Positions 13,739 to 55,057 of a DNA stretch of 64,000 bases are shown here, piece by piece. How positions within the stretch are numbered: the stretch's first letter is position 1; the number at the start of each line of letters is the position of its first letter. The stretch covers positions 101,439 through 165,438 of the forward strand of contig JACPIF010000008.1 of assembly GCA_016188215.1 (NCBI GenBank), written 5' to 3'. The notes under the pieces are model-generated. The model was not told where the DNA came from and ran no database searches. It saw only the letters and a program-made list of their open reading frames with translations. The position numbers and the translations under genes were made by a program. Source of the stretch: Candidatus Woesearchaeota archaeon. GTDB lineage: Archaea; Nanobdellota; Nanobdellia; Woesearchaeales; JACPIF01.

Positions 13739-14251
13739 TTAATCCAATCCAAACTCCTTTACAACCTCATGCACAGCTCCCTTCGGGCTTAGCGTGCTTT
13801 TCATAAGATAAAACTTAGTGACCTCAAACTTAATCTTAGGGATCTGCAAAAGAACAATCCTATCCCTTAATTCTTTGATATCAGCAGGAGTGGCAACTCT
13901 GGCCAAGGTAATGTGTGGCTTAAATTTCTTATCCTTAGGAAACATACTTTCTAAGGCAATATCTATTTTTTTGTGCAGTTCCAAGAACTGTTCTTTAGGC
14001 TCTAACCCTAGCCAAATGACCCTTGGTTTGTTTGCACCAGGGAAATAGCCTATTTCAGCTGTTTCTGCATTAAAGCCCTTAACCTTAACCTTTCCTAAAG
14101 CCCCTATAATATGTTCTGGCTCACCTTCGCCTAGAAATTTTAGCGTGATATGGGGATTCTTATTTACAGAGACTCCCTGAATCTTAAGTGTGTTTGCCCC
14201 TTCAGTAATAGGGCCAGTTTCCGGTATAGCAATAGCTATAAATAATCTCAT
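13739..14251 (-). CDS. ligT: RNA 2',3'-cyclic phosphodiesterase / 2'-5' RNA ligase (LigT, 2H phosphoesterase)
   Basis: 170 aa with two H-x-T-x motifs: PHITLKFLG and PHITLARV. Confidence 0.8.
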   Translation of the reverse strand: MRLFIAIAIPETGPITEGANTLKIQGVSVNKNPHITLKFLGEGEPEHIIGALGKVKVKGFNAETAEIGYFPGANKPRVIWLGLEPKEQFLELHKKIDIALESMFPKDKKFKPHITLARVATPADIKELRDRIVLLQIPKIKFEVTKFYLMKSTLSPKGAVHEVVKEFGLD

Positions 14252-14284
14252 AAAAACAAATAAAAGAATAGAGAATTAAAAAGA

Positions 14285-14641
14285 TTATTGCTCTTCTTCG
14301 CCAAAATCCTCAGAATCTTCAGTTGATTCCTCAGCATCCGCTTCAGGCTCTGATTCCTGGGGTTCTGACTCTTCAGATTCCTCAGATGACTCCTCTGATT
14401 CGGATTCCTGCTGCTCAGACTTGCCTACAACCTCTGCAAATCCTACCTTGCTCAGGACTTTCTTGACCCGGATCCTTACCTGATCGCCGGTGCTTGTGTT
14501 TGGCACGAACAGGACAAACCCGTTTTTCTTGGCTATCCCATCGCCCTTCTCGCCAACCGCTTCAATCTTTACGTCCAACTCATCTCCCACATTTACAGGA
14601 GCTATCCTATTTGATCTAAATCCCCTATCGTCTTTTCTCAT
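14285..14641 (-). CDS. TRAM-domain protein with acidic C-terminal tail
   Basis: GDELDVKIEAVGEKGDGIAKKNGFVLFVPNTSTGDQVRIRVKKVLSKVGFAEVV is the small archaeal TRAM OB-fold; C-terminus is poly-E/S/D. Confidence 0.6.
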   Translation of the reverse strand: MRKDDRGFRSNRIAPVNVGDELDVKIEAVGEKGDGIAKKNGFVLFVPNTSTGDQVRIRVKKVLSKVGFAEVVGKSEQQESESEESSEESEESEPQESEPEADAEESTEDSEDFGEEEQ

Positions 14642-14740
14642 ACTTTAATTCACCTTTGTTAACGCGCTTATGCACGTATATGTCTGCTTGCTGAATTCCT
14701 GTTAGTTTATAAATGTTCCTGAAATTTCTATGGCAAATCT

Positions 14741-14784
14741 GGAGCCTGAGAATAAAATAAAAAAAGAAAGGGATCAGATATCCC
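14741..14784 (-). terminator. radA terminator: hairpin GGGATATCTGATCCC overlapping the stop codon followed by oligo-T tract (minus-strand sense TTTCTTTTTTTATTTTATT)
   Basis: Inverted repeat 14770-14784 and T-run 14741-14768 immediately 3' of radA stop; archaeal termination uses oligo-T. Confidence 0.45.
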
Positions 14785-15850
14785 TTAAGCCAGAGGTCTC
14801 AACATAGAAGTTAGCCTCACCTTCAGGCAAATTCGGGCTGTCCACCAGTTTGGCAACCCGGCTGCCCTTCTTGCCTTTCCTCAGATAAATCCTAAAGGTA
14901 GAGGCATGCGCAACTACGTGGCCGCCTATTGCCTGCGTTGGATCTCCAAAGAAGACATCGGGCCTTGACATGACCTGGTTGGTGACATAGACGCAGAGAT
15001 TGTAGGTGTCCGCGAGCTTGAGCAGGGTGTGCATATGCTTGTTCAGCTTCTGCTGCCTGTCAGCTAATGTCCCACGGCCGATGAATTCAGCCCGGAAGTG
15101 TGCGGTTAAAGAGTCAATGATGACCAGCTTCACCTTCAGGCCCTGCTTCTTGATAAGATCTTCAACCTTCTCGCCAAGAAGCATCTGGTGGTCTGAGTTA
15201 TAAGCCCTTGCCACCTTGATGTTTGAGAGCACTTTCTGCGAGTCCATGCCAAGACCTTCAGCCAGCTGCTGGATCCTTTCAGGACGGAAGGTATTCTCTG
15301 TATCTATGAAGACTGCAACTGCATCCGGGTCATCCTTCTGGACGTTAACTGCAAGAGAATGCGCTATCTGTGTCTTGCCGCTGCCGAATTCCCCGAAAGC
15401 CTCAACAATGCAGCCGGATTCAAAGCCGCCTCCCAATAAATTATCAAGAGCCTTGCTTCCTGAAGAGACTTTGAGCACTCTTGCCCTGCGCTCAAGCAAC
15501 TGGATGCCGGATTCAAAGCCCATCTCCAGAGCAGAGCGTGCCGCCTGGATCATCTTCCTCGCAGCCTGTTCAGTAAGGCCAGTAGCCTCAACAATCTCGC
15601 CGGGAGAAGCTACCGCAACACTTAACAGCGTTGTATATCCGACTTCCTCAAGGCGGGCTGCGGTTGCAGGGCCAACGCCCGGCAAATCGCTTATGCCGGG
15701 CTCTTTCTTGATGTGAACCTGCTCAACCTGCTCTGCAGTGCTGCTTCTGGAATGAGCAGTTTGCCTGCCCTGATTATCCTTTACCTTTTGTCTTTCTCTT
15801 GTTTCAGAATTTTGTCCTTTGGTTTCCAATACTACCACTTTTTGCATCAT
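14774..15850 (-). CDS. radA: DNA repair and recombination protein RadA
   Basis: HhH N-domain ISDLPGVGPATAARLEEVGY, Walker A EAFGEFGSGKTQIAHSLAV, Walker B VKLVIIDSLTAHFR; start placed at ATGATG 15850 with GGTGA Shine-Dalgarno 5-11 nt upstream, rather than track start 15970. Confidence 0.85.
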   Translation of the reverse strand: MMQKVVVLETKGQNSETRERQKVKDNQGRQTAHSRSSTAEQVEQVHIKKEPGISDLPGVGPATAARLEEVGYTTLLSVAVASPGEIVEATGLTEQAARKMIQAARSALEMGFESGIQLLERRARVLKVSSGSKALDNLLGGGFESGCIVEAFGEFGSGKTQIAHSLAVNVQKDDPDAVAVFIDTENTFRPERIQQLAEGLGMDSQKVLSNIKVARAYNSDHQMLLGEKVEDLIKKQGLKVKLVIIDSLTAHFRAEFIGRGTLADRQQKLNKHMHTLLKLADTYNLCVYVTNQVMSRPDVFFGDPTQAIGGHVVAHASTFRIYLRKGKKGSRVAKLVDSPNLPEGEANFYVETSGLRDI

Positions 15851-15863
15851 AATCACCTCTTGT

Positions 15864-16217
15864 TTATATAATTTCCTCAACCGGCTCTTCGTCAGAATTC
15901 TGCAGGGATTCCCGCATGACCAGGTATTCATATGCCTTCTGCAGCACAAGTGTTGCCCTTGGAAGGTCATTGATCCTCAGGCTGCCGGAGTTCTGCCACT
16001 TCCCGCTCTTGTCCTTATAGGCACGCTGGAATGATACTGTGCGGTAATTGACTACGCCATCCTTTCCGGCTGCCTGGTTTTGCCAAACTGTTGCAGAAAT
16101 AGTTCCAGACATGAACTTTTTTTCAGGGGCGTTCCTGGAATCTTCCACCCTGAAATCATTGTATTGCTTTAGTTTTTGCATTTTGATGCACCCTTTGCTT
16201 TTCGCATTTTGTTTCAA
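15864..16217 (-). CDS. small protein, possible PC4/Sub1-like ssDNA-binding fold, co-operonic with radA
   Basis: 117 aa; segment VNYRTVSFQRAYKDKSGKWQNSGSLRINDLPRATLVLQKAYEYL loosely matches the PC4 ssDNA-binding domain pattern; only 13 nt upstream of radA on same strand. Confidence 0.3.
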   Translation of the reverse strand: MKQNAKSKGCIKMQKLKQYNDFRVEDSRNAPEKKFMSGTISATVWQNQAAGKDGVVNYRTVSFQRAYKDKSGKWQNSGSLRINDLPRATLVLQKAYEYLVMRESLQNSDEEPVEEII

Positions 16218-16392
16218 ACCCGCTCAGAAATTCTTATTTTGATTCTGGCGCCCAGAAAAAACTTGTTTTTCCCGGGTTCCCTTGTTTTGCGCCTCTCGCG
16301 CCAGGAAGGGGGTGAACGAGCGTGCCGCATTTGCATGCGGGCACAGCCGTTTATACATAATAGAAGAGACCTTGCTTATATAGCTCACGCGA

Positions 16393-16412
16393 GGATGTCC
16401 AGTGACCAGTGG
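16393..16412 (-). promoter_or_regulatory. radA-operon upstream element: tandem half-sites, minus-strand sense CCACTGGTCACTGGACATCC
   Basis: Plus strand GGATGTCCAGTGACCAGTGG; differs by one base from the element upstream of mcm; second partial copy GAATGTCCAGTG at 16463-16474. Confidence 0.4.
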
Positions 16413-16474
16413 ATAGAGAAATGGCTTAATAAGGCTTATACGGCTCTTTATGCAGAGTTATAGAATGTCCAGTG

Positions 16475-17581
16475 CTAGTACACTGTTTCCTCTGGAACAG
16501 CAGCATCATCCATATCCCCTGTTTCAGGGCTTTTTCGCTTGATTGGAATTGAGATATCCTTAACTGGAATTGCGCCAAACTCCTGGATTTCCTTTTCAAG
16601 GTCAATTGCTTGTGTGGCTGAATTAACCACGAACTCAAGCCTATTAAAAAATTGGTTGCGGGTGCACCTGCCCCTGAATTTTGCGGTTGTGCCTAATAGT
16701 GAAGCTTTAGATATCTCAAACAGATCAGGCTGGTCTTTCATGGCAAGGATTTCTGCACTGCTCTTCTGCAAAAGCTGCTCAACTTGGCTGCGGAAGCAGA
16801 CAGCGCGGATGTTTTCAGTGCCGTCATCAATGACAAAATTGAGGAGGAATGCAAAGCCTGGCTGCACTGGCCCATGCTCAGGGCAGGTAAAATTGTCAGA
16901 AAGCCGGACGCGCTTGTTGCACATGCCGCACACTTCAAAGAATTTTAAATCAAAGACCTGCACTATGGTGGCGAACAGCTCGGCGTCTGCGTCCTGCTCT
17001 GATAAATCCTTGATAGATTTTCTGGGTGATTGCTTTGCATACTGGCGGGATGCGCCGTTGCTGCCATTGCTATCAGGAATATTTATTGCCACATCCTTGA
17101 TTTCAGTAAGCAGGTGGCTGTTGTCATTTAGATGCACTTCCAGCCTTCCCGTGTTCTCACGGACATAGCCGTTGCGCACCTTTACGATTGAATTCAGCTT
17201 TATAGAGCGAAGCTTTTCTGCAGATTCGCCCCAGAGAACTATACGGATAGAGCCTGTCTCGTCACCGATGAGCATTGAGCCTACTTTGCCTTCGCGCTTC
17301 TCAGTCTTGAATTCCCTGATATCATATACCTGGAGGACCTTGCCGATTGTTTCAACAGAACGGATGCCAGGCATGATGTTCTTTATCTTGAGCTGCCCGG
17401 TAAACTGCTCAAAGAGCTTGACGCCCAGCTCATGCGCAACAATATGCGCTGCGCCTTCCCTTGATATCAATCCAGACAATTGTGTGAGCTTGTTTTGTAT
17501 CCTTTCCTCAATATCCTTTTGCGGCAATTTAGCCTTTTCAGTTATCGCTGCAACAATCTCATTGTAAGAAAGCTTAATCAT
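16475..17581 (-). CDS. rpa: replication protein A (RPA) single-stranded DNA-binding protein with OB folds and zinc ribbon
   Basis: OB-fold repeats (IGKVLQVYDIREF...GSMLIGDETGSIRIVLWG), C4 zinc ribbon CGMCNKRV...CPEHG; start at ATG 17581 (MIKLSYNE...) rather than 17671. Confidence 0.75.
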   Translation of the reverse strand: MIKLSYNEIVAAITEKAKLPQKDIEERIQNKLTQLSGLISREGAAHIVAHELGVKLFEQFTGQLKIKNIMPGIRSVETIGKVLQVYDIREFKTEKREGKVGSMLIGDETGSIRIVLWGESAEKLRSIKLNSIVKVRNGYVRENTGRLEVHLNDNSHLLTEIKDVAINIPDSNGSNGASRQYAKQSPRKSIKDLSEQDADAELFATIVQVFDLKFFEVCGMCNKRVRLSDNFTCPEHGPVQPGFAFLLNFVIDDGTENIRAVCFRSQVEQLLQKSSAEILAMKDQPDLFEISKASLLGTTAKFRGRCTRNQFFNRLEFVVNSATQAIDLEKEIQEFGAIPVKDISIPIKRKSPETGDMDDAAVPEETVY

Positions 17582-42421: not shown

Positions 42422-42982
42422 ATGGCTAAAAAACAACAAAAATCTCAGAAAGAAATCAAGGTTGTCAATATAGTAGTCTCTACATCTCTAAAGCATGACA
42501 TCCCGCTTGAGAAAATGGCAGCTACTCTGTCAAATACTGAATACAATCCTGAGCAGTTCCCAGGGCTTGTCATAAGGATAAAGGAGCCGAAAACATCTGC
42601 ATTAATTTTCAGCTCAGGCAAGATCGTGTGCACTGGAGCAAGAAGCATGGATAAGGTGCATGAGTCAATCTCAAAAATCATCAAGAGCCTGGAAAAGATA
42701 AAGGTCAAGATCACTATAAAGCCAGAGGTAAAGATACAGAATATTGTGGCTTCAGGAAGCGTGGGCATGGACCTGAACCTTAATACGCTGGCCATGAAGC
42801 TGGATAATACTGAATACGAGCCGGAGCAGTTCCCTGGTCTGGTTTACAAGCTTGATGAGGCCAAGGCAACTTTCCTGCTGTTCAGCAACGGCAAGGTTGT
42901 CTGCACTGGCACAAAGAGCGAGAAAGAGGTTGAGATAGCACTGGACAAGCTGATTGCCAACCTGAAAAAGGTCGGGGCATAG
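42422..42982 (+). CDS. tbp: TATA-box binding protein
   Basis: Two direct repeats: NIVVSTSLKHDIPLEKMA...EYNPEQFPGLVIRIKEPK...GKIVCTGA and NIVASGSVGMDLNLNTLA...EYEPEQFPGLVYKLDEAK...GKVVCTGT; TATA-like TTTATAAA elements 40-70 nt upstream. Confidence 0.9.
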   Translation: MAKKQQKSQKEIKVVNIVVSTSLKHDIPLEKMAATLSNTEYNPEQFPGLVIRIKEPKTSALIFSSGKIVCTGARSMDKVHESISKIIKSLEKIKVKITIKPEVKIQNIVASGSVGMDLNLNTLAMKLDNTEYEPEQFPGLVYKLDEAKATFLLFSNGKVVCTGTKSEKEVEIALDKLIANLKKVGA

Positions 42983-42984
42983 GG

Positions 42985-43020
42985 CACTGGACACTGGACA
43001 TCCCCGCGTGAGGCTTATAA
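42985..43020 (+). promoter_or_regulatory. mcm upstream element: tandem CACTGGA half-sites (CACTGGACACTGGACATCC) abutting a TATA-like box (CTTATAAA, 43013-43020)
   Basis: Read from sequence; near-identical 19-mer in same orientation upstream of radA operon; ~55-90 nt upstream of mcm ATG. Confidence 0.45.
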
Positions 43021-43074
43021 AGGGGTAAGGCAACATACTGGTATGATGCAATACATTTATAGCATAGTCATTAG

Positions 43075-45102
43075 GTGGTTTACGTGGAAGAGGTTCAATT
43101 TGCGAGGCAGTTTTATCAGTTCTTTGATGAGTATTATCACGCTGAGATTCTAGAGAAGATCAGGAAAGGAGAGAATTTCCTGCTGGTTGATTTTGCAAAA
43201 CTGGCTGCATTTGAGCCTGAGCTTGCAGACGAGCTTCTGGAAAGGCCGGATGAGGTAATACAGAATGCCGAGCTGGCGTTTCATGAGTTTGACCTTGGGA
43301 ATATAACAAGATTCAAGATCAGGTTTGTAAATCTGCCTGCAGCGCAGCGGCTCATGATCAGCAATATCAGGAGCCTGCATATCGGCAAATTCTTACTTGT
43401 TGAGGGAATTGTGCGGCAGAAGTCAGATGTGAGGCCGCAGGTGGTTTCTGCAAGGTTTGAATGCCCTCAGTGCGGTAATATCATACCAATACTGCAGCTT
43501 GAAAATACGTTTAGGGAACCAAGCAGGTGCAGCTGCGGCAGGAAAGGGAAGTTTGTGCTTCTTGGTAAAGAGCTGGTGGATGCGCAGAAACTGGTGCTTG
43601 AGGAGGCGCATGAGAGCATGGAAGGGGGCGAGCAGCCAAAGCGAATCGGCGTATTCCTGAAGGATGATCTTGTAAGCCCGCTAAGCGAGAAAAGGAGCGC
43701 GCCGGGGACTAAAGTAAGGGTCTTGGGCATAGTGAAAGAAGTCCCGATCACCCTTAACAGCCAGGGCACAAAATCAGTGAGGTTTGACCTGCAGATTGAG
43801 GCAAATAATGTTGAGGCTATTGATGAGACATTCTACGACCTTGTTATTTCAAAAGAGGAAGAGGCTGCAATAAAGAAGCTTGGGGAAGACCAAAGGATAA
43901 TGCAGAAGCTTGCCGGCAGCATTGCGCCATCCGTCTATGGATATGAAAAGATAAAAGAATCGCTTGTGCTGCAGATGATGGGGGGCGTGCATAAAGTCGG
44001 GAGCGATGGCAGCATCAAGCGCGGGGATATACATATCCTGCTTGTTGGAGATCCTGGAGCTGGAAAATCCATGCTTCTAAAGCGCATTAATATTGTGGCA
44101 CCTAAAAGCAGATATATCTCCGGAAAGGGGATTTCAGCCGCAGGATTAACAGCGTCAGTTGTCAAGGATGAATTCCTGAAAGGGTGGAGCCTGGAGGCGG
44201 GGGCCATGGTGCTTGCTTCAAACGGGATTTGCTGCATCGATGAATTAGACAAAATGAGCAAGGAGGACTCAAGCGCTATGCATGAAGCACTTGAAAACCA
44301 GACTATCAGCATTTCAAAGGCGAATGTGCAGGCTACGCTTATAGCCAGGACTACTGTACTTGCGGCTGCAAACCCTAAACTTGGAAGATTTGACCAATAC
44401 GGCATTATTGCCGAGCAAATAGATTTGCCGCCTGCGCTTATTAATAGGTTTGATCTTATCTTTCCAATCAAAGATTTGCCTAACAGGGAGAGTGATGAAT
44501 TGATGGCAGAACATATACTAAACCTGCACCATGCGCCTGAGAAGGTTGAGCAGGAAATCCCGACTAAACTGCTGAAGAAATATTTTGCATTTGCCAAGCA
44601 GCGACTGCAGCCAAGGCTGACAGAAGGGGCTATGGAAGAGATCAAGAGCTATTATCTCAAGATGCGGATGAGCGGCGGAGGAGAGGAAGGTTTTCATGCT
44701 ATTCCAATATCTGCGCGGCAGCTGGATGCGCTCGTGAGGCTTTCCGAGGCGGCAGCACGCGTGCGGCTTGATGATAAGGTGACAAGAAGGGATGCAAAAA
44801 AGGCGATTGAACTGCTTGAATACTGCCTATTACAGGTCGGGCTTGACCCTGAAACAGGGAAGATTGATATTGACCGGATTGCGACAGGCGTTGGCGCTTC
44901 GCAGAGGAGCGCAATTTTCACGGTAAAAGAGATATTGCATGAGCTGGAGCAGCGGTTTGGGAAGCAGATCCCGGTGCAGGAAGTTGTAGAAGCTGCACGG
45001 GAAAAGGGGATAGATGAGACAAAGACGGAGGATGTACTGGATAAGTTACGCAGATCAGGCGATGTGTTTGAACCTAAGCGAGGATACCTGCAGCTGGTTT
45101 GA
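43075..45102 (+). CDS. mcm: MCM replicative helicase
   Basis: 675 aa; zinc finger CPQCGN...CSCG, Walker A ILLVGDPGAGKSMLLKR, Walker B CCIDELDKM, arginine finger region; no intein (normal length). Confidence 0.85.
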   Translation: MVYVEEVQFARQFYQFFDEYYHAEILEKIRKGENFLLVDFAKLAAFEPELADELLERPDEVIQNAELAFHEFDLGNITRFKIRFVNLPAAQRLMISNIRSLHIGKFLLVEGIVRQKSDVRPQVVSARFECPQCGNIIPILQLENTFREPSRCSCGRKGKFVLLGKELVDAQKLVLEEAHESMEGGEQPKRIGVFLKDDLVSPLSEKRSAPGTKVRVLGIVKEVPITLNSQGTKSVRFDLQIEANNVEAIDETFYDLVISKEEEAAIKKLGEDQRIMQKLAGSIAPSVYGYEKIKESLVLQMMGGVHKVGSDGSIKRGDIHILLVGDPGAGKSMLLKRINIVAPKSRYISGKGISAAGLTASVVKDEFLKGWSLEAGAMVLASNGICCIDELDKMSKEDSSAMHEALENQTISISKANVQATLIARTTVLAAANPKLGRFDQYGIIAEQIDLPPALINRFDLIFPIKDLPNRESDELMAEHILNLHHAPEKVEQEIPTKLLKKYFAFAKQRLQPRLTEGAMEEIKSYYLKMRMSGGGEEGFHAIPISARQLDALVRLSEAAARVRLDDKVTRRDAKKAIELLEYCLLQVGLDPETGKIDIDRIATGVGASQRSAIFTVKEILHELEQRFGKQIPVQEVVEAAREKGIDETKTEDVLDKLRRSGDVFEPKRGYLQLV

Positions 45103-45118
45103 GTGAAAGGCTGGAATA

Positions 45119-45712
45119 ATGGCTGATGAAGAATTAAAGCGGGCAACTGCATACAAGGTTAGCGTAAAGGAACTATTGAATGGCACTTTTCTGAGGACTG
45201 ATAATGCCCCTAGTTTTTTGCTGAGCGAAAATGGCAGGAAAATTCTGAGAGTGAACCTTATAGGGATATTGGTTGAGATTATATCAGAGACTATGTGGCT
45301 GCTGGACGATGGCACTGGCAGCATCATGGTACGCTCTTTTAACAAGCTGCCGTTTTATGTTGCAGGCGATCTTGTGCTGGTTATTGGAAAGGTGAGGGAG
45401 ATAAATGAAGAAAGGTATATTGTAGTTGAGATCGCGCGCAAGCTTACTGATAATGGGTGGCTTCGGTTAAGGGCAGCTGAGCTGCAGAAAGAAATTCCTG
45501 TGCAGCAGGCTGTGGCAATAGAAACAGTTGAGCAGATGGCTGATGGGCAGGAGATATACGATTCTATCAAGAAGCTTGATACTGGAAATGGTGTTGCGCT
45601 TTCTGTATTGACTGAAAAGTTTGGCGAAGGAGCTGAAGCGTATGTGTCCAAGCTGCTGGAGCACGGCGAGATATTTGAAGTGCAGCCGGGGAGGGTCAAG
45701 GTCTTAGAATAG
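45119..45712 (+). CDS. OB-fold plus C-terminal winged-helix protein, RPA32/Rpa2-like (assignment tentative)
   Basis: OB pattern KILRVNLIGILVEI...LDDGTGSIMVRSF...GDLVLVIGKV; C-terminal GVALSVLTEKFGEGAEAYVSKLLEHGEIFEVQPGRVKVL resembles RPA32 wH; 16 nt after mcm stop. Confidence 0.4.
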   Translation: MADEELKRATAYKVSVKELLNGTFLRTDNAPSFLLSENGRKILRVNLIGILVEIISETMWLLDDGTGSIMVRSFNKLPFYVAGDLVLVIGKVREINEERYIVVEIARKLTDNGWLRLRAAELQKEIPVQQAVAIETVEQMADGQEIYDSIKKLDTGNGVALSVLTEKFGEGAEAYVSKLLEHGEIFEVQPGRVKVLE

Positions 45713-52705: not shown

Positions 52706-53917
52706 TCAAGTTAGGTCTAACTCTTCCTCTAACATCTGCTTTATCTTATTAGTTACTTCCTGCTGTGTCGCAAGGCTTATCTCCCTCGTCCGGCCGTGTC
52801 TCCCTTTTGAGACTACACGCCCTTGGATAATACCAAGCATGTCAAGCTCTGCCAAAATATCTGAAATGCGGCGCTGCGTCAGCGGGCGAAGACCTACACG
52901 ATTGCAAAGCTGCCGATATATATCATATACTTCGCCTGTCAGCACAGGTTCTTTGGTTGCATGCAGCAACTTGATGATGGCATAGGTAATGCATTGATAC
53001 TGTTTGGGCTGGGTAGCTACTATCTCTATGATATAGTCACGCTCAATCTTTTCCTCAGCCTCGTCAATATGCTCAAGACTTACCGCGGTTGTCCCGTTGC
53101 GCTCGGCGATCTCTGCAGCAACACGCAGCAGCTCGATGGCGCGGCGCGCATCGCCATGGTCCCTTGCAGCATATGCGGCACATTTTTCAATAACACCTGC
53201 CTCAAGAGAATTTTCCCTGAACGCCATGCCAGCACGGTATGCAAGGATGTCCTTGATCTGGAGCGCGTTATACGGGGGGAAAACAATGCCTTCCTCTGAC
53301 AGCGAGCTCCTAACCCTTGGATCCAGATTATCCAAAAATTTTGCATCGTTTGAGATACCGATGATAGCCACCTGAGCCTGCTTGAGCTCCTCATTAATCC
53401 TGGTCAGGTTGTAGAGTATCTCATCTTCTGCACGTTTTATGAGATGATCTATCTCGTCAAGGATGAGGAGGATTATCTGCTCTCTCTCATCAATTACAGA
53501 ATGGAATATCTTGTAGACCTCATCTGTTGGCAGCCCAGTTGCTGGAACAGCCTTGTTAAGGTCGCGGGCAAGCTGGGCAATAAGCCTGTATTCAGTATCT
53601 GCAATCTTCTTTAGCTTGCAGTTGAGGTAAAGAACTTTGAGGGGCGCCTTGCTCTTTTCAGCAACCGAAAGCAATTGGTTTGTTACATGTTTTATGGTTA
53701 CTGTTTTACCCGTACCGGTTTTTCCGTATAACAGCACGTTAGAGGGCTTTTCTTTCTTGAGTGTGGGCGCAAGAATCTTTCCCAGCTGCTCAATTTGATC
53801 GTCACGATGCACAATCTGGTCAGGAACAAAATTCGTTTGTAGCGCCTTTTTGTTTAAGAAAGTAGAGTAGTTGCTTACATACTGCTCAAAATATGCTGCC
53901 AACCCCCTTTGTGCCAT
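52706..53917 (-). CDS. orc1: Orc1/Cdc6 replication initiator
   Basis: 403 aa; Walker A VLLYGKTGTGKTVTIKHV, Walker B LILDEIDHL, sensor motifs and C-terminal winged helix; immediately adjacent to predicted oriC. Confidence 0.9.
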   Translation of the reverse strand: MAQRGLAAYFEQYVSNYSTFLNKKALQTNFVPDQIVHRDDQIEQLGKILAPTLKKEKPSNVLLYGKTGTGKTVTIKHVTNQLLSVAEKSKAPLKVLYLNCKLKKIADTEYRLIAQLARDLNKAVPATGLPTDEVYKIFHSVIDEREQIILLILDEIDHLIKRAEDEILYNLTRINEELKQAQVAIIGISNDAKFLDNLDPRVRSSLSEEGIVFPPYNALQIKDILAYRAGMAFRENSLEAGVIEKCAAYAARDHGDARRAIELLRVAAEIAERNGTTAVSLEHIDEAEEKIERDYIIEIVATQPKQYQCITYAIIKLLHATKEPVLTGEVYDIYRQLCNRVGLRPLTQRRISDILAELDMLGIIQGRVVSKGRHGRTREISLATQQEVTNKIKQMLEEELDLT

Positions 53918-54256
53918 ATGGTTCCAGAGGAAATAGGGGTTATTTAAAGTTTTATGTTGTGGAAAGGGTGTGCCCCCCTGGTTTCTTATGGAGATGTTTT
54001 CGGGATGTCCGTCACTTTTTATTATTATATATTATTATTTTCTATATTGATTATTATTATATATTATATATTTAGATATTTATATATTATATTGATATTA
54101 TATATCATATATCTATATTTTAATATTAAAGAAGGAGAAGAGTGTTGCACAGGAAACTAAGGGGAGCTAGAGAAACCCACCCACCACTACCTGTTGCTAT
54201 TATAAAGTAACAACTTTGTAGAAAGATTTAAATATAAGGTAATAATCCGATTAAAC
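53918..54256. promoter_or_regulatory. predicted chromosomal replication origin (oriC): ORB-like elements flanking an AT-rich DNA-unwinding element
   Basis: ORB-like TTCCAGAGGAAATAGGGG (53922-53939), inverted ORB-like CCCCCCTGGTTTCTTATGGAG (53973-53993), DUE 54011-54130 (>90% A+T with ~18-nt direct repeats TTATTATTATATATTAT), ORB-like TTGCACAGGAAACTAAGGGG (54145-54164); matches Pyrococcus/Sulfolobus ORB consensus TCCAnnGGAAAC..GGGG; classic oriC-cdc6-polD arrangement. Confidence 0.65.
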
Positions 54257-55057
54257 ATGATAATGCAAAAGGAAATATTAGGGAAATTACGCGATTTTGG
54301 GTTAAATTCTTATGAAATAAGGCTTTGGGTAGCGCTGCTCTCCCGCGGCATAAGCACAGCAGGCGAACTTTCTGATATAGCCAATGTGCCAAGGAGCAGA
54401 AGCTATGATGTCTTAGAAAGCCTTGAAAAGAAAGGATTTGTCATGACAAAGGTCGGCAAGCCTATAAAATATATTGCAGTGCCTCCAGAAGAGGTTTTTG
54501 AGCGTGTTAAAAAGAGAATTAAGGTGAACACGGACGAAAGGCTGGCAATAATAGATAATATGAAGAAAAGCACGGTCCTTGATGAACTCAACTTGCTACA
54601 TTCAACAGGATTGGAGCTTGTGGAGCCTTATGATCTATCCGGCTCATTAAAAGGGCGGGAAAACCTGTACACCCACCTCGAAACAAGGCTCAAGAACGCT
54701 AAGCAGTCCATAGTTATATCAACAACTGCGCAGGGCCTTATCAGGAAAGGCGCGGCGCTCAGGAAAGCATTGCAAAGGGCGCAGGAGCGGGGAGTGCAGG
54801 TTAAGATCCTTACTGCATTGGGTAAGGAAAACCAGGATGCTGCCAAGGAGCTTTCAAAATTTGCAGAGATAAGAAGCAAGGCAAACCCTGCACGGTATGT
54901 TATGATAGATGGGAAAGAGATAACGTTCATGCTATCTGATGACAAGCAAGTGCACGCAAATTATGACACTGGAATCTGGGTCAATACACCATTCTTTACT
55001 GCCGCTATTGAATCAATGTTCCAGAGAGAATGGGAAGGCTGCAGGCCGTACAAGTAA
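54257..55057 (+). CDS. TrmB-family transcriptional regulator
   Basis: N-terminal wH YEIRLWVALLSRGISTAGELSDIANVPRSRSYDVLESLEKKGFV typical of TrmB; ~160 aa C-terminal effector-like domain. Confidence 0.6.
   Translation: MIMQKEILGKLRDFGLNSYEIRLWVALLSRGISTAGELSDIANVPRSRSYDVLESLEKKGFVMTKVGKPIKYIAVPPEEVFERVKKRIKVNTDERLAIIDNMKKSTVLDELNLLHSTGLELVEPYDLSGSLKGRENLYTHLETRLKNAKQSIVISTTAQGLIRKGAALRKALQRAQERGVQVKILTALGKENQDAAKELSKFAEIRSKANPARYVMIDGKEITFMLSDDKQVHANYDTGIWVNTPFFTAAIESMFQREWEGCRPYK

Follow-up and report, generated by a model that had tools for sequence, protein, structure and literature searches.

Which feature do the promoters of mcm and of the radA operon have in common in a Woesearchaeal genome, and what kind of protein would read it? 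The question is raised by a stretch of 64 kb from Candidatus Woesearchaeota archaeon (contig JACPIF010000008.1), hereafter called the window, to which the strands and positions of all coordinates refer. In it, a short tandem repeat lies upstream of the TATA boxes of both transcription units. An earlier note on this DNA had interpreted the repeat as a half-site of the origin recognition box (ORB), bound by Orc1/Cdc6 and shared with the replication origin (oriC). Comparison with related genomes leads to another view. The element would be the recognition site of a lineage-specific transcription factor of Woesearchaeota-type DPANN archaea that controls a DNA-maintenance regulon, probably as an activator, a reading to which we give somewhat better than even chances. 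From its sequence and surroundings, we infer that this factor is not Orc1/Cdc6.

The tandem element at the mcm and radA promoters

The promoters of mcm and of the radA operon carry a common 37-bp module, composed of CACTGG-N-CACTGGACA, six variable bases, CGTGAG, one further base and the TATA box. In gene sense, the module reads CACTGGACACTGGACA-TCCCCG-CGTGAG-G-CTTATAAA at mcm and CACTGGTCACTGGACA-TCCTCG-CGTGAG-C-TATATAAG at the radA operon. The plus-strand site is located between the TBP gene (42422-42982) and mcm, and the minus-strand site follows the RPA gene (17671-16475) and precedes the radA operon. The parts of the module and the further copies of its core sequence are the following:

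42985..43000, plus strand: block A of the mcm promoter, the tandem heptad repeat CACTGG-A-CACTGGACA, which is the element core; read from the sequence and invariant in relatives
43001..43006, plus strand: variable 6-nt spacer TCCCCG of the mcm promoter; variable in the alignment and of low information content over 54 sites
43007..43012, plus strand: block B of the mcm promoter, CGTGAG, at the position of the TFB recognition element (BRE), directly 5′ of the TATA box; invariant in 5 mcm promoters
43014..43021, plus strand: mcm TATA box CTTATAAA, read from the sequence
16396..16411, minus strand: block A of the radA operon, CACTGG-T-CACTGGACA, read from the sequence; recurs at independently fetched radA-operon promoters
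16384..16389, minus strand: block B of the radA operon, CGTGAG, read from the sequence
16376..16383, minus strand: TATA box of the radA operon, CTATATAA, read from the sequence
16466..16474, minus strand: lone distal core CACTGGACA that immediately follows the RPA stop codon, 63 nt 5′ of block A of the radA operon
42939..42947, plus strand: copy of CACTGGACA in the TBP gene, where it falls on codons A-L-D-K, 46 nt 5′ of the mcm block A

The likeness between both promoters had been described as a shared 19-mer, i.e., CACTGGACACTGGACATCC at 42985-43003 (plus strand), followed by the TATA-like CTTATAAA at 43014-43021, and GGATGTCCAGTGACCAGTGG at 16393-16412 (plus strand), which is CCACTGGTCACTGGACATCC in the minus sense and has one mismatch and the same orientation to the downstream gene. 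These sequences are indeed present, as is a partial copy, GAATGTCCAGTG at 16463-16474, which holds a perfect core CACTGGACA. The promoters are alike far beyond chance and over a longer match than the 19-mer, but the ‘ATCC’ end of the latter belongs to the spacer and is variable in relatives. The TATA box is not about 55 nt but about 63 nt upstream of the mcm start. The start is GTG 43084, because the corresponding database protein (P0001, 672 aa) is 100% identical; for a reading frame beginning at GTG 43075 there is no such protein on record. Transcription of mcm would start near 43045, which would give a leader of about 38 nt, and a Shine–Dalgarno sequence, AGGTGG, is found at 43067-43072. 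For the radA operon, the predicted transcription start is near 16352.

Within the window, the 28-mer pattern CACTGGNCACTGGACANNNNNNCGTGAG has two exact matches versus none in 100 shuffles, with the TATA box one base later both times. The 9-mer CACTGGACA is present five times versus 0.38 expected, and all five copies are at the mcm and radA-operon promoters. The 12-mer that had been proposed for motif searches does not perform equally well, as its six matches versus 3.4 expected (two mismatches allowed) are not significant. A relaxed window scan, for the core with at most one mismatch and a TATA box 10-16 nt downstream, gave no site beyond the known two. Moreover, the module was not found at the window's promoters of hjc, RPA and the cdc6-polD cluster. 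Thus, it does not mark replication genes in general, nor does the element tie these genes to origin activity. A searched-for identity as an RNA element was rejected: Rfam returned nothing in the window or in 13 loci except two tRNAs elsewhere, and the element lies 5′ of the TATA box, so that it is not transcribed from its own promoter. Scans for tRNAs, bacterial promoters and terminators gave nothing relevant.

The copies outside the two tandem blocks are of different standing. The distal core at 16466-16474 is probably an auxiliary site. For the copy in the TBP gene, membership of the element is doubtful: the A-L-D codons spell CACTGGACA in some relatives and not in others, L003 being without the 9-mer, and this copy is probably coding-driven.

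The conservation of the module was examined in four relatives that were picked by MCM protein identity (77-91%), the motif not being used. In the resulting five mcm promoters (77-100% MCM identity), CACTGG-N-CACTGGACA is invariant and is followed by six bases that differ between genomes. Both CGTGAG and the TATA box are also kept in these TBP-mcm intergenic regions, in which otherwise only the ribosome-binding site is conserved and the rest has diverged. Block A is under purifying selection. For radA, four promoters were fetched via homologues of the small open reading frame (ORF) that precedes the gene, again by protein identity and without the motif. All four have the tandem block A 13-15 nt 5′ of TATATAAA. 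Three of them (L145, L146 and L149) have the canonical repeat without CGTGAG. The fourth (L144) does have CGTGAG, and there CACTGG has given way to CACAAG in both repeats in concert. As radA promoters that lack CGTGAG nevertheless have the tandem block, the core of the site is the tandem repeat, and CGTGAG is a lineage-specific addition instead of an obligatory part. The possibility that CGTGAG is the general BRE of this genome was rejected too, since other TATA boxes in the window are preceded by AAAG/AAGG-type sequence. The changed site of L144 (1840-1855) reads CACAAGTCACAAGACA and has the same TGG-to-AAG change in each repeat; the mcm promoter of this genome (L001) retains CACTGG. The double change could represent concerted evolution of half-sites or a second specificity. 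Its concerted nature suggests that equivalent subunits read both repeats.

At larger distances, the upstream regions of 73 of 80 further metagenome MCM loci were surveyed. Among these 73, the tandem form is limited to the closest mcm clade, and in clades at 60-66% MCM identity (L059, L067-69, L088 and L097), a lone CACTGGACA persists, separated by about 13 nt from TATATAAA downstream. In many Woesearchaeota (L092-L095, L111, L115, L124 and others), the TBP stop and the mcm start are only a few nt apart, with as little as 1-2 nt in L092-L094, L111 and L115. With stop and start nearly adjoining, mcm has no promoter of its own there, and TBP and MCM are probably co-transcribed. A separate mcm promoter with the module is a derived feature of some clades.

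Distribution of the module and the genes behind it

To what extent the module occurs elsewhere was determined with a strict pattern of 21 specified bases, applied to one genome per species (185,579 species, 596 Gb, two strands). The scan gave 51 exact copies versus approximately 0.3 expected, a number that follows from the size and strands just given and from 4^21. All copies are in 33 Woesearchaeota/Nanoarchaeota-type assemblies, with at most six per genome. The pattern required CGTGAG but no TATA box, and a TATA box of the form T-W-T-W-T-A-A-A starts one base after CGTGAG in all 54 profilable sites. The distance from core to TATA box is 13 nt at most sites (range 10-15), and the orientation is constant. 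Over the same 54 sites, the sequence beyond the 37-bp module contains no information, and neither flanking similarity nor a terminal repeat was found around the modules; such uninformative flanks indicate that the module is not a copied repeat. The start of at least 15 downstream ORFs is 25-34 nt past CGTGAG, as expected for leaderless archaeal mRNAs. By these signs, the sites appear to be functional promoters and not a dispersed repeat. A viral origin of the module was considered and rejected, as strict and relaxed patterns gave no match in the 2.9 million viral contigs of IMG/VR.

Besides the tandem block, additional cores are present upstream. Of 53 site entries, 20 have an extra CACTGG in the same orientation in the 300 nt upstream, versus four in reverse orientation. 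Seven of the 53 entries, and additionally L144, have a distal core in the same orientation 60-66 nt upstream, where about 0.1 are expected (our own arithmetic, for a 7-nt window). The core at 16466-16474, at -63, is one of these. A distance of about 64 bp corresponds to about six helical turns and thus points to cooperative binding along the same face of the helix. In genome UBA10192 (L009, L016 and L042), TTCCGGAAA-like repeats are present 20-90 nt upstream of the module, between the distal and the proximal CACTGG cores. These may be the site of a second factor.

Some records among the source assemblies carry labels that look wrong. Metagenome-assembled genomes titled ‘uncultured Methanosarcinales archaeon’ or ‘Candidatus Aminicenantes bacterium’ (L001/L010/L013/L041, CAZRPY…; L017/L020/L021/L037, JAFCCF…) hold Woesearchaeota-type MCM/RadA loci, including an MCM 79% identical to that of the window.

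The genes downstream of the 51 genomic sites were sorted by ORF calling, clustering and Pfam/NCBIfam annotation. The two sites of the window and the mcm promoters of L003, L004 and L005, the latter three found by protein, are additional to this list:

small-ORF-radA operon: 9 sites
mcm: 3 sites
TIGR03916-type radical-SAM DNA modification/repair protein: 3 sites, one of them followed by a beta-CASP nuclease and one preceded by Bro-N
HNH and DinB: 1 site
Rad50/SbcC-like ATPase: 1 site
RNase-H-like nuclease: 1 site
PolB-exonuclease-like nuclease: 1 site
tiny-ORF operon (two or three ORFs of 24-50 aa): 8 sites
conserved winged-helix protein of about 150-180 aa: 3 sites
tyrosine recombinases (integrases): 2 sites
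free-standing LAGLIDADG endonucleases: 3 sites
TnpB: 2 sites
KilA-N: 1 site
PIN or MazE-PIN: 2 sites
nucleotidyltransferase: 1 site
downstream gene not assigned: 7 sites
contig ends: 3 sites

This gene content implies, at the level of sequence, that the module marks a previously undescribed co-regulated set of DNA replication, recombination and repair genes. The proposal of the earlier note that mcm and radA are co-regulated via a common cis element is supported, the element being conserved and embedded in both promoters. Genes of mobile elements appear to have acquired the same module.

In the window, the two targets and a conserved part of the radA leader are as follows:

43084..45712, plus strand: mcm operon, with mcm (43084-45102) and a co-directional OB-fold gene (45119-45712); Pfam MCM, MCM_OB and MCM_lid
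13739..16181, minus strand: radA operon, with a small ORF (16181-15864, 105 aa), radA (15850-14774), a TRAM-domain gene (14641-14285) and a LigT-like gene (14251-13739); Pfam Rad51/HHH_5, TRAM and LigT
16189..16217, minus strand: conserved block TTGAAACAAAATGCGAAAAGCAAAGGGTG of the 5′ untranslated region, directly 5′ of the start codon of the small ORF; kept in 9 of 9 aligned leaders from relatives

The gene order TBP-mcm-OB-fold is kept in relatives, and the small ORF is upstream of radA in every relative examined. Its product has a predicted beta4-alpha fold, for which no significant structural match was obtained. The 5′ leader of the radA operon (window 16189-16352, minus strand; L022, L027, L038, L043 and L144-L149) is unusually long, with 110-200 nt. 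It contains a hairpin near the predicted transcription start (window 16322-16344) and, just 5′ of the start codon, the purine-rich block TTGAAAnAAAAnGCGAAAAGCAAA, which is kept in 9 of 9 relatives. A search for a common structure of the aligned leaders with RNAalifold gave no pairs.

The tiny-ORF operon is found at L011, L017, L025, L028, L046, L051, L052 and L055. Its peptides are of the types M-x-DLSxxTIExLFFQQIK…, …W(E/D)SYKRRIDFLSxFxFQQxVR… and an acidic …EEAFMKGYL. Pfam gives no match to them, and the window encodes no homologue. A leader hairpin (CAGCAGGA…TCCTGCT) is conserved in four of the eight loci (L011, L025, L028 and L051), and a terminator-like hairpin follows the tiny ORFs in most of the eight. 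The Sua5/YrdC gene that lies downstream was rejected as a target, since its own promoter follows a terminator-like hairpin and the genes under the module are the tiny ORFs that precede Sua5/YrdC.

LAGLIDADG sequences occur in two settings. In some relatives (L005/L045, MCM of 1102 aa), MCM contains a LAGLIDADG intein. The free-standing LAGLIDADG genes under the module (L012, L013 with two copies, L021 and L026) cluster with intein-bearing MCM by BLAST, and in L013 the gene was duplicated along with the module.

Which protein may read the element

The arrangement of the site suggests how it could work. The core consists of two direct repeats spaced by 7 bp, CACTGG-N-CACTGGACA, that point to a consensus TATA box about 13 bp (10-15) downstream. 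It would be located at about -59 to -44 from the predicted transcription start, with CGTGAG at the BRE position in many lineages. A protein with two subunits or domains is predicted to occupy the two repeats, and a factor at the distal single core, often about 64 bp further upstream, could contact the proximal site cooperatively. Most likely, the factor would act as an activator that helps to recruit TFB/TBP, because the site has a position upstream of the BRE, a fixed orientation and a near-fixed spacing. These are features of an upstream activating sequence (UAS): the element is immediately upstream of BRE/TATA at a spacing of 10-15 nt, and, as for a repeated site, its tandem heptads are invariant, its repeats have changed together in L144 and a distal core is present near -64.

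The interpretation as an ORB started from a genuine likeness. The Pyrococcus mini-ORB is ATTTCCACTGGAA, and CCACTGG is found at the centre of both ORB and mini-ORB, in line with the CCAGTG core that had been stated; ‘TTCC’ and ‘GAA’ are reported to be perfectly conserved in both (PMC1904270). In addition, a paralog of Orc1 is a proven regulator of the DNA-damage response in Sulfolobales, where Orc1-2 acts through the promoter hexanucleotide ANTTTC (PMC6061795). On this model, Orc1/Cdc6, or a paralog such as Orc1-2, would bind CCAGTG as an ORB half-site and couple mcm and radA to the origin. The element has neither TTCC nor GAA, its repeats reading N-CACTGG-A/T-C and N-CACTGG-W-CACTGGACA, and neither TTTC nor GAAA was found within the conserved module.

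The origin-like region of the window itself gives the same answer. It contains cdc6 (52706-53917, minus strand), a 120-bp AT-rich stretch (54016-54135, 13-14% GC) that represents an unwinding element, and two ORB-like boxes on the same strand, GTTCCAGAGGAAATAGGGG (53921) and GTTGCACAGGAAACTAAGGGG (54144). With their sequences TTCCAGAGGAAA and TTGCACAGGAAA, these boxes have AGAG or ACAG at the centre and not AGTG, and they do not match CCAGTG(A/T)CCAGTG of the element. Conversely, CACTGGACA was found neither in nor near oriC and CACTGG not within it, and all copies are at the two promoters, 10.9 kb and 37.5 kb away. One oriC sequence had been put forward as a related copy of the element:

54003..54015, plus strand: oriC sequence GGATGTCCGTCAC, examined and rejected as a member of the element

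The sequence is present, but it shares only the non-conserved spacer and GGACA with the element and lacks CACTGG. The string GGATGTCC alone occurs five times in the window versus about one expected, with three copies outside the modules, one of these within the cdc6 coding sequence. Over the 53 site entries, ORB-like boxes accompany the module in two. A further point in favour of the ORB model is an exact copy of the 13-nt oriC ORB core, GTTCCAGAGGAAA, at 16486-16498 (minus strand), 75 nt upstream of the radA module. It coincides with the last RPA codons (V-P-E-E), and the same 13-mer is present in the 3′ coding sequence of RPA in L144 (approximately 1760-1775, 77% identity), again as V-P-E-E. 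Two exact 13-mers in 64 kb are unusual, and this one is probably coding-driven. The cdc6-polD cluster, too, is without the module. The ORB/Orc1 identity was rejected on sequence definition, location and co-occurrence. Binding of Orc1 at the element is unlikely, and the complete model of an origin-coupled mcm and radA is very improbable.

Three further observations concern the origin region alone. The AT-rich stretch holds imperfect AT-rich repeats of about 32-41 bp. The box at 53921 lies between the cdc6 TATA box (approximately 53940-53949) and the cdc6 ATG, a placement that would allow autorepression of cdc6. A TrmB-like gene is located at 54257-55057, and cdc6 and the polD subunit genes DP1 and DP2 are colinear.

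One candidate for the factor is the winged-helix protein of about 150 aa that has the module on its own gene, though this indication is circumstantial. The module precedes the gene in L023, L030 and L048 (strict scan); of three loci that were fetched independently, L138 and L142 have it as well and L140 does not. Autoregulation of this kind would fit the role of a regulator. The family (proteins P0121-P0240) has 2,523 homologues, essentially in Woesearchaeota/Nanoarchaeota only, with about 60% identity across the group. No curated family exists for it, and PLxEITLRRYEKP, LQPGDSRD and GIASSNIRRQLKRLR are invariant stretches. An AlphaFold model (pLDDT, the predicted local distance difference test score, of 82) has a winged helix, with a long helix at the C-terminus. 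Fold and Pfam matches are weak and of the TrmBL2, Fur, MarR, Sso10a and ArsR types, and a PDB sequence search and Foldseek likewise gave only weak generic winged-helix matches.

Several points weigh against a lineage-specific activator. The evidence is comparative sequence analysis of uncultured organisms throughout. The scan pattern forced CGTGAG, so that the regulon is under-sampled and biased to block-B lineages. The candidacy of the winged-helix protein rests on apparent autoregulation and fold; its gene may be just another target, as the protein is about 60% identical phylum-wide, including in the module-less L140. The remaining points concern the direction of control and argue for the main alternative, in which the same site is a repressor operator of an SOS-like system: a protein on the repeats and CGTGAG would cover the BRE and block TFB until a DNA-damage or cell-cycle signal relieves the block. 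The TATA boxes are of consensus strength at 54 of 54 sites, and such near-perfect boxes fit repressed strong promoters better than weak, activator-dependent ones. Block B is exactly at the BRE position and overlaps the BRE, where a bound protein could equally occlude TFB. With its recombinase, translesion polymerase and genes of mobile elements, the gene set is similar to the SOS regulon of bacteria, which is under repressor control; radA, dinB, the radical-SAM repair gene, integrases, homing endonucleases of the LAGLIDADG type, TnpB and toxin-antitoxin genes parallel LexA regulons, and the winged-helix gene would be autoregulated if it encodes the regulator. The architecture of the site is nevertheless not that of an SOS operator. 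It is a direct repeat and not a palindrome, and its conserved core, on the upstream side, is separated from the TATA box by about 13 bp; in no case does the core overlap this box or the start site. Overlap with the BRE is limited to the optional block B, which is dispensable in L145, L146 and L149. Moreover, simple occlusion requires neither strict orientation nor near-fixed spacing, and SOS boxes vary in position. Repression through this site is thus a serious but unlikely explanation.

The position of block B has also been taken into account in another way, i.e., by regarding the module as an extended core-promoter element that is read by an alternative general factor, a paralog of TFB or TBP. 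Block B differs from the AAAG/AAGG-type sequence that precedes the other TATA boxes of the window, the register to the TATA box is fixed, and, according to a recent preprint, TFB paralogs drive specific programmes in other archaea (bioRxiv 10.64898/2026.09.06.749720). The helix-turn-helix of TFB reads about 6-7 bp beside the TATA box, not a 16-bp repeat 13 bp off, and the distal cores at -64 would not be explained. As block B is dispensable in three of the four fetched radA promoters, this explanation loses likelihood, and we regard it as improbable. It is scarcely credible that the module has no regulatory role and reflects similarity by chance, a side effect of coding or a mobile repeat that has dispersed. 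Coding does account for the core copy at 42939 and the ORB-like 13-mer at 16486, and some modules precede transposase or homing-endonuclease genes; but the statistics of the window and of the genome scan exclude chance, the module is intergenic, and it is kept at orthologous promoters despite diverging flanks, without flanking similarity, terminal repeats or viral matches. A lineage-specific factor that activates from the tandem repeat is therefore the reading that we retain.

Comparison with known systems

A more far-reaching proposal can be built on this reading, and we advance it tentatively, as a possible if doubtful extension. Woesearchaeota would have a dedicated DNA-damage or S-phase programme, in which the winged-helix protein of about 150 aa, as a novel regulator, binds the tandem CACTGG heptads 13 bp upstream of the TATA box and activates radA, mcm, dinB and the Rad50-like, radical-SAM and tiny-protein genes. 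Integrases, homing endonucleases and TnpB would have captured the module to time their expression to host DNA stress, which would be an archaeal case of selfish elements that tap the regulon of their host. To our knowledge, gene regulation in DPANN archaea, with their uncultured state and reduced genomes, is almost wholly undescribed, and we know of no archaeal DNA-damage or replication regulon with a defined cis element outside Sulfolobales. If the proposal holds, DPANN archaea would gain their first defined regulon, which would at the same time be only the second of the DNA-damage type in Archaea, with a regulator unlike Orc1-2/TFB3 of Sulfolobales. The 16-bp site would offer a concrete handle for regulon prediction in Woesearchaeal genomes and for reading metatranscriptomes. 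The small protein that precedes radA, the tiny-ORF operon and the winged-helix protein would be candidates for new DNA-maintenance or cell-cycle functions.

As the earlier note had supposed, the motif appears to be new: full-text searches on archaeal/DPANN promoter motifs, on radA/mcm regulons and on the sequence itself gave no description of it. Its closest counterparts in architecture are archaeal UASs. Besides the UAS of GvpE, the sites of Ptr2 and TFB-RF1 are archaeal upstream activating sequences adjacent to BRE/TATA. The GvpE element of haloarchaeal gas-vesicle promoters has 20 nt in two 8-nt portions and is located directly upstream of the BRE (PMC2241852). Like it, the Woesearchaeal element is bipartite or repeated, lies upstream of the BRE at about -60 to -44 and has a fixed spacing and orientation. 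The sequences are unrelated, the repeats here are direct and spaced by 7 bp, and the targets serve DNA maintenance instead of gas vesicles or metabolism; activation is in the present case a prediction. With ORB and mini-ORB, the element shares the 6-7-nt string CCACTGG of the ORB centre of Thermococcales and Sulfolobales. It differs from these by lacking the TTCC…GAA(A) core and the G-string, by its location off the origin and by its form of a tandem direct repeat in register with the TATA box.

In gene content, the comparison is with DNA-damage regulons. In archaea, we know of no other precedent for such a regulon than the ANTTTC/Orc1-2 system of Sulfolobales, in which TFB3 also takes part. 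This system likewise uses a promoter-proximal motif common to a set of DNA-damage or DNA-transaction genes. The motif is different, as are the genes, i.e., ups, ced and tfb3 there versus radA, mcm, dinB and the radical-SAM gene here, and the hosts are Crenarchaeota versus DPANN. The SOS box of LexA similarly unites a recombinase, a translesion polymerase, nucleases and mobile-element genes under one motif, with a regulator that is, here, maybe autoregulated. We know of no LexA homologue in archaea, and LexA is a self-cleaving repressor with a palindromic operator at variable positions, in contrast to the direct repeat that is fixed upstream of the TATA box. Lastly, the eukaryotic G1/S elements (E2F sites, and MCB/SCB in yeast) co-regulate MCM and Rad51-family genes via a short promoter motif, a likeness by analogy only, as there is no homology of sequence or factor. 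Measured against these systems, the element would be a new cis-regulatory motif, and the genes behind it a predicted regulon of a familiar kind.

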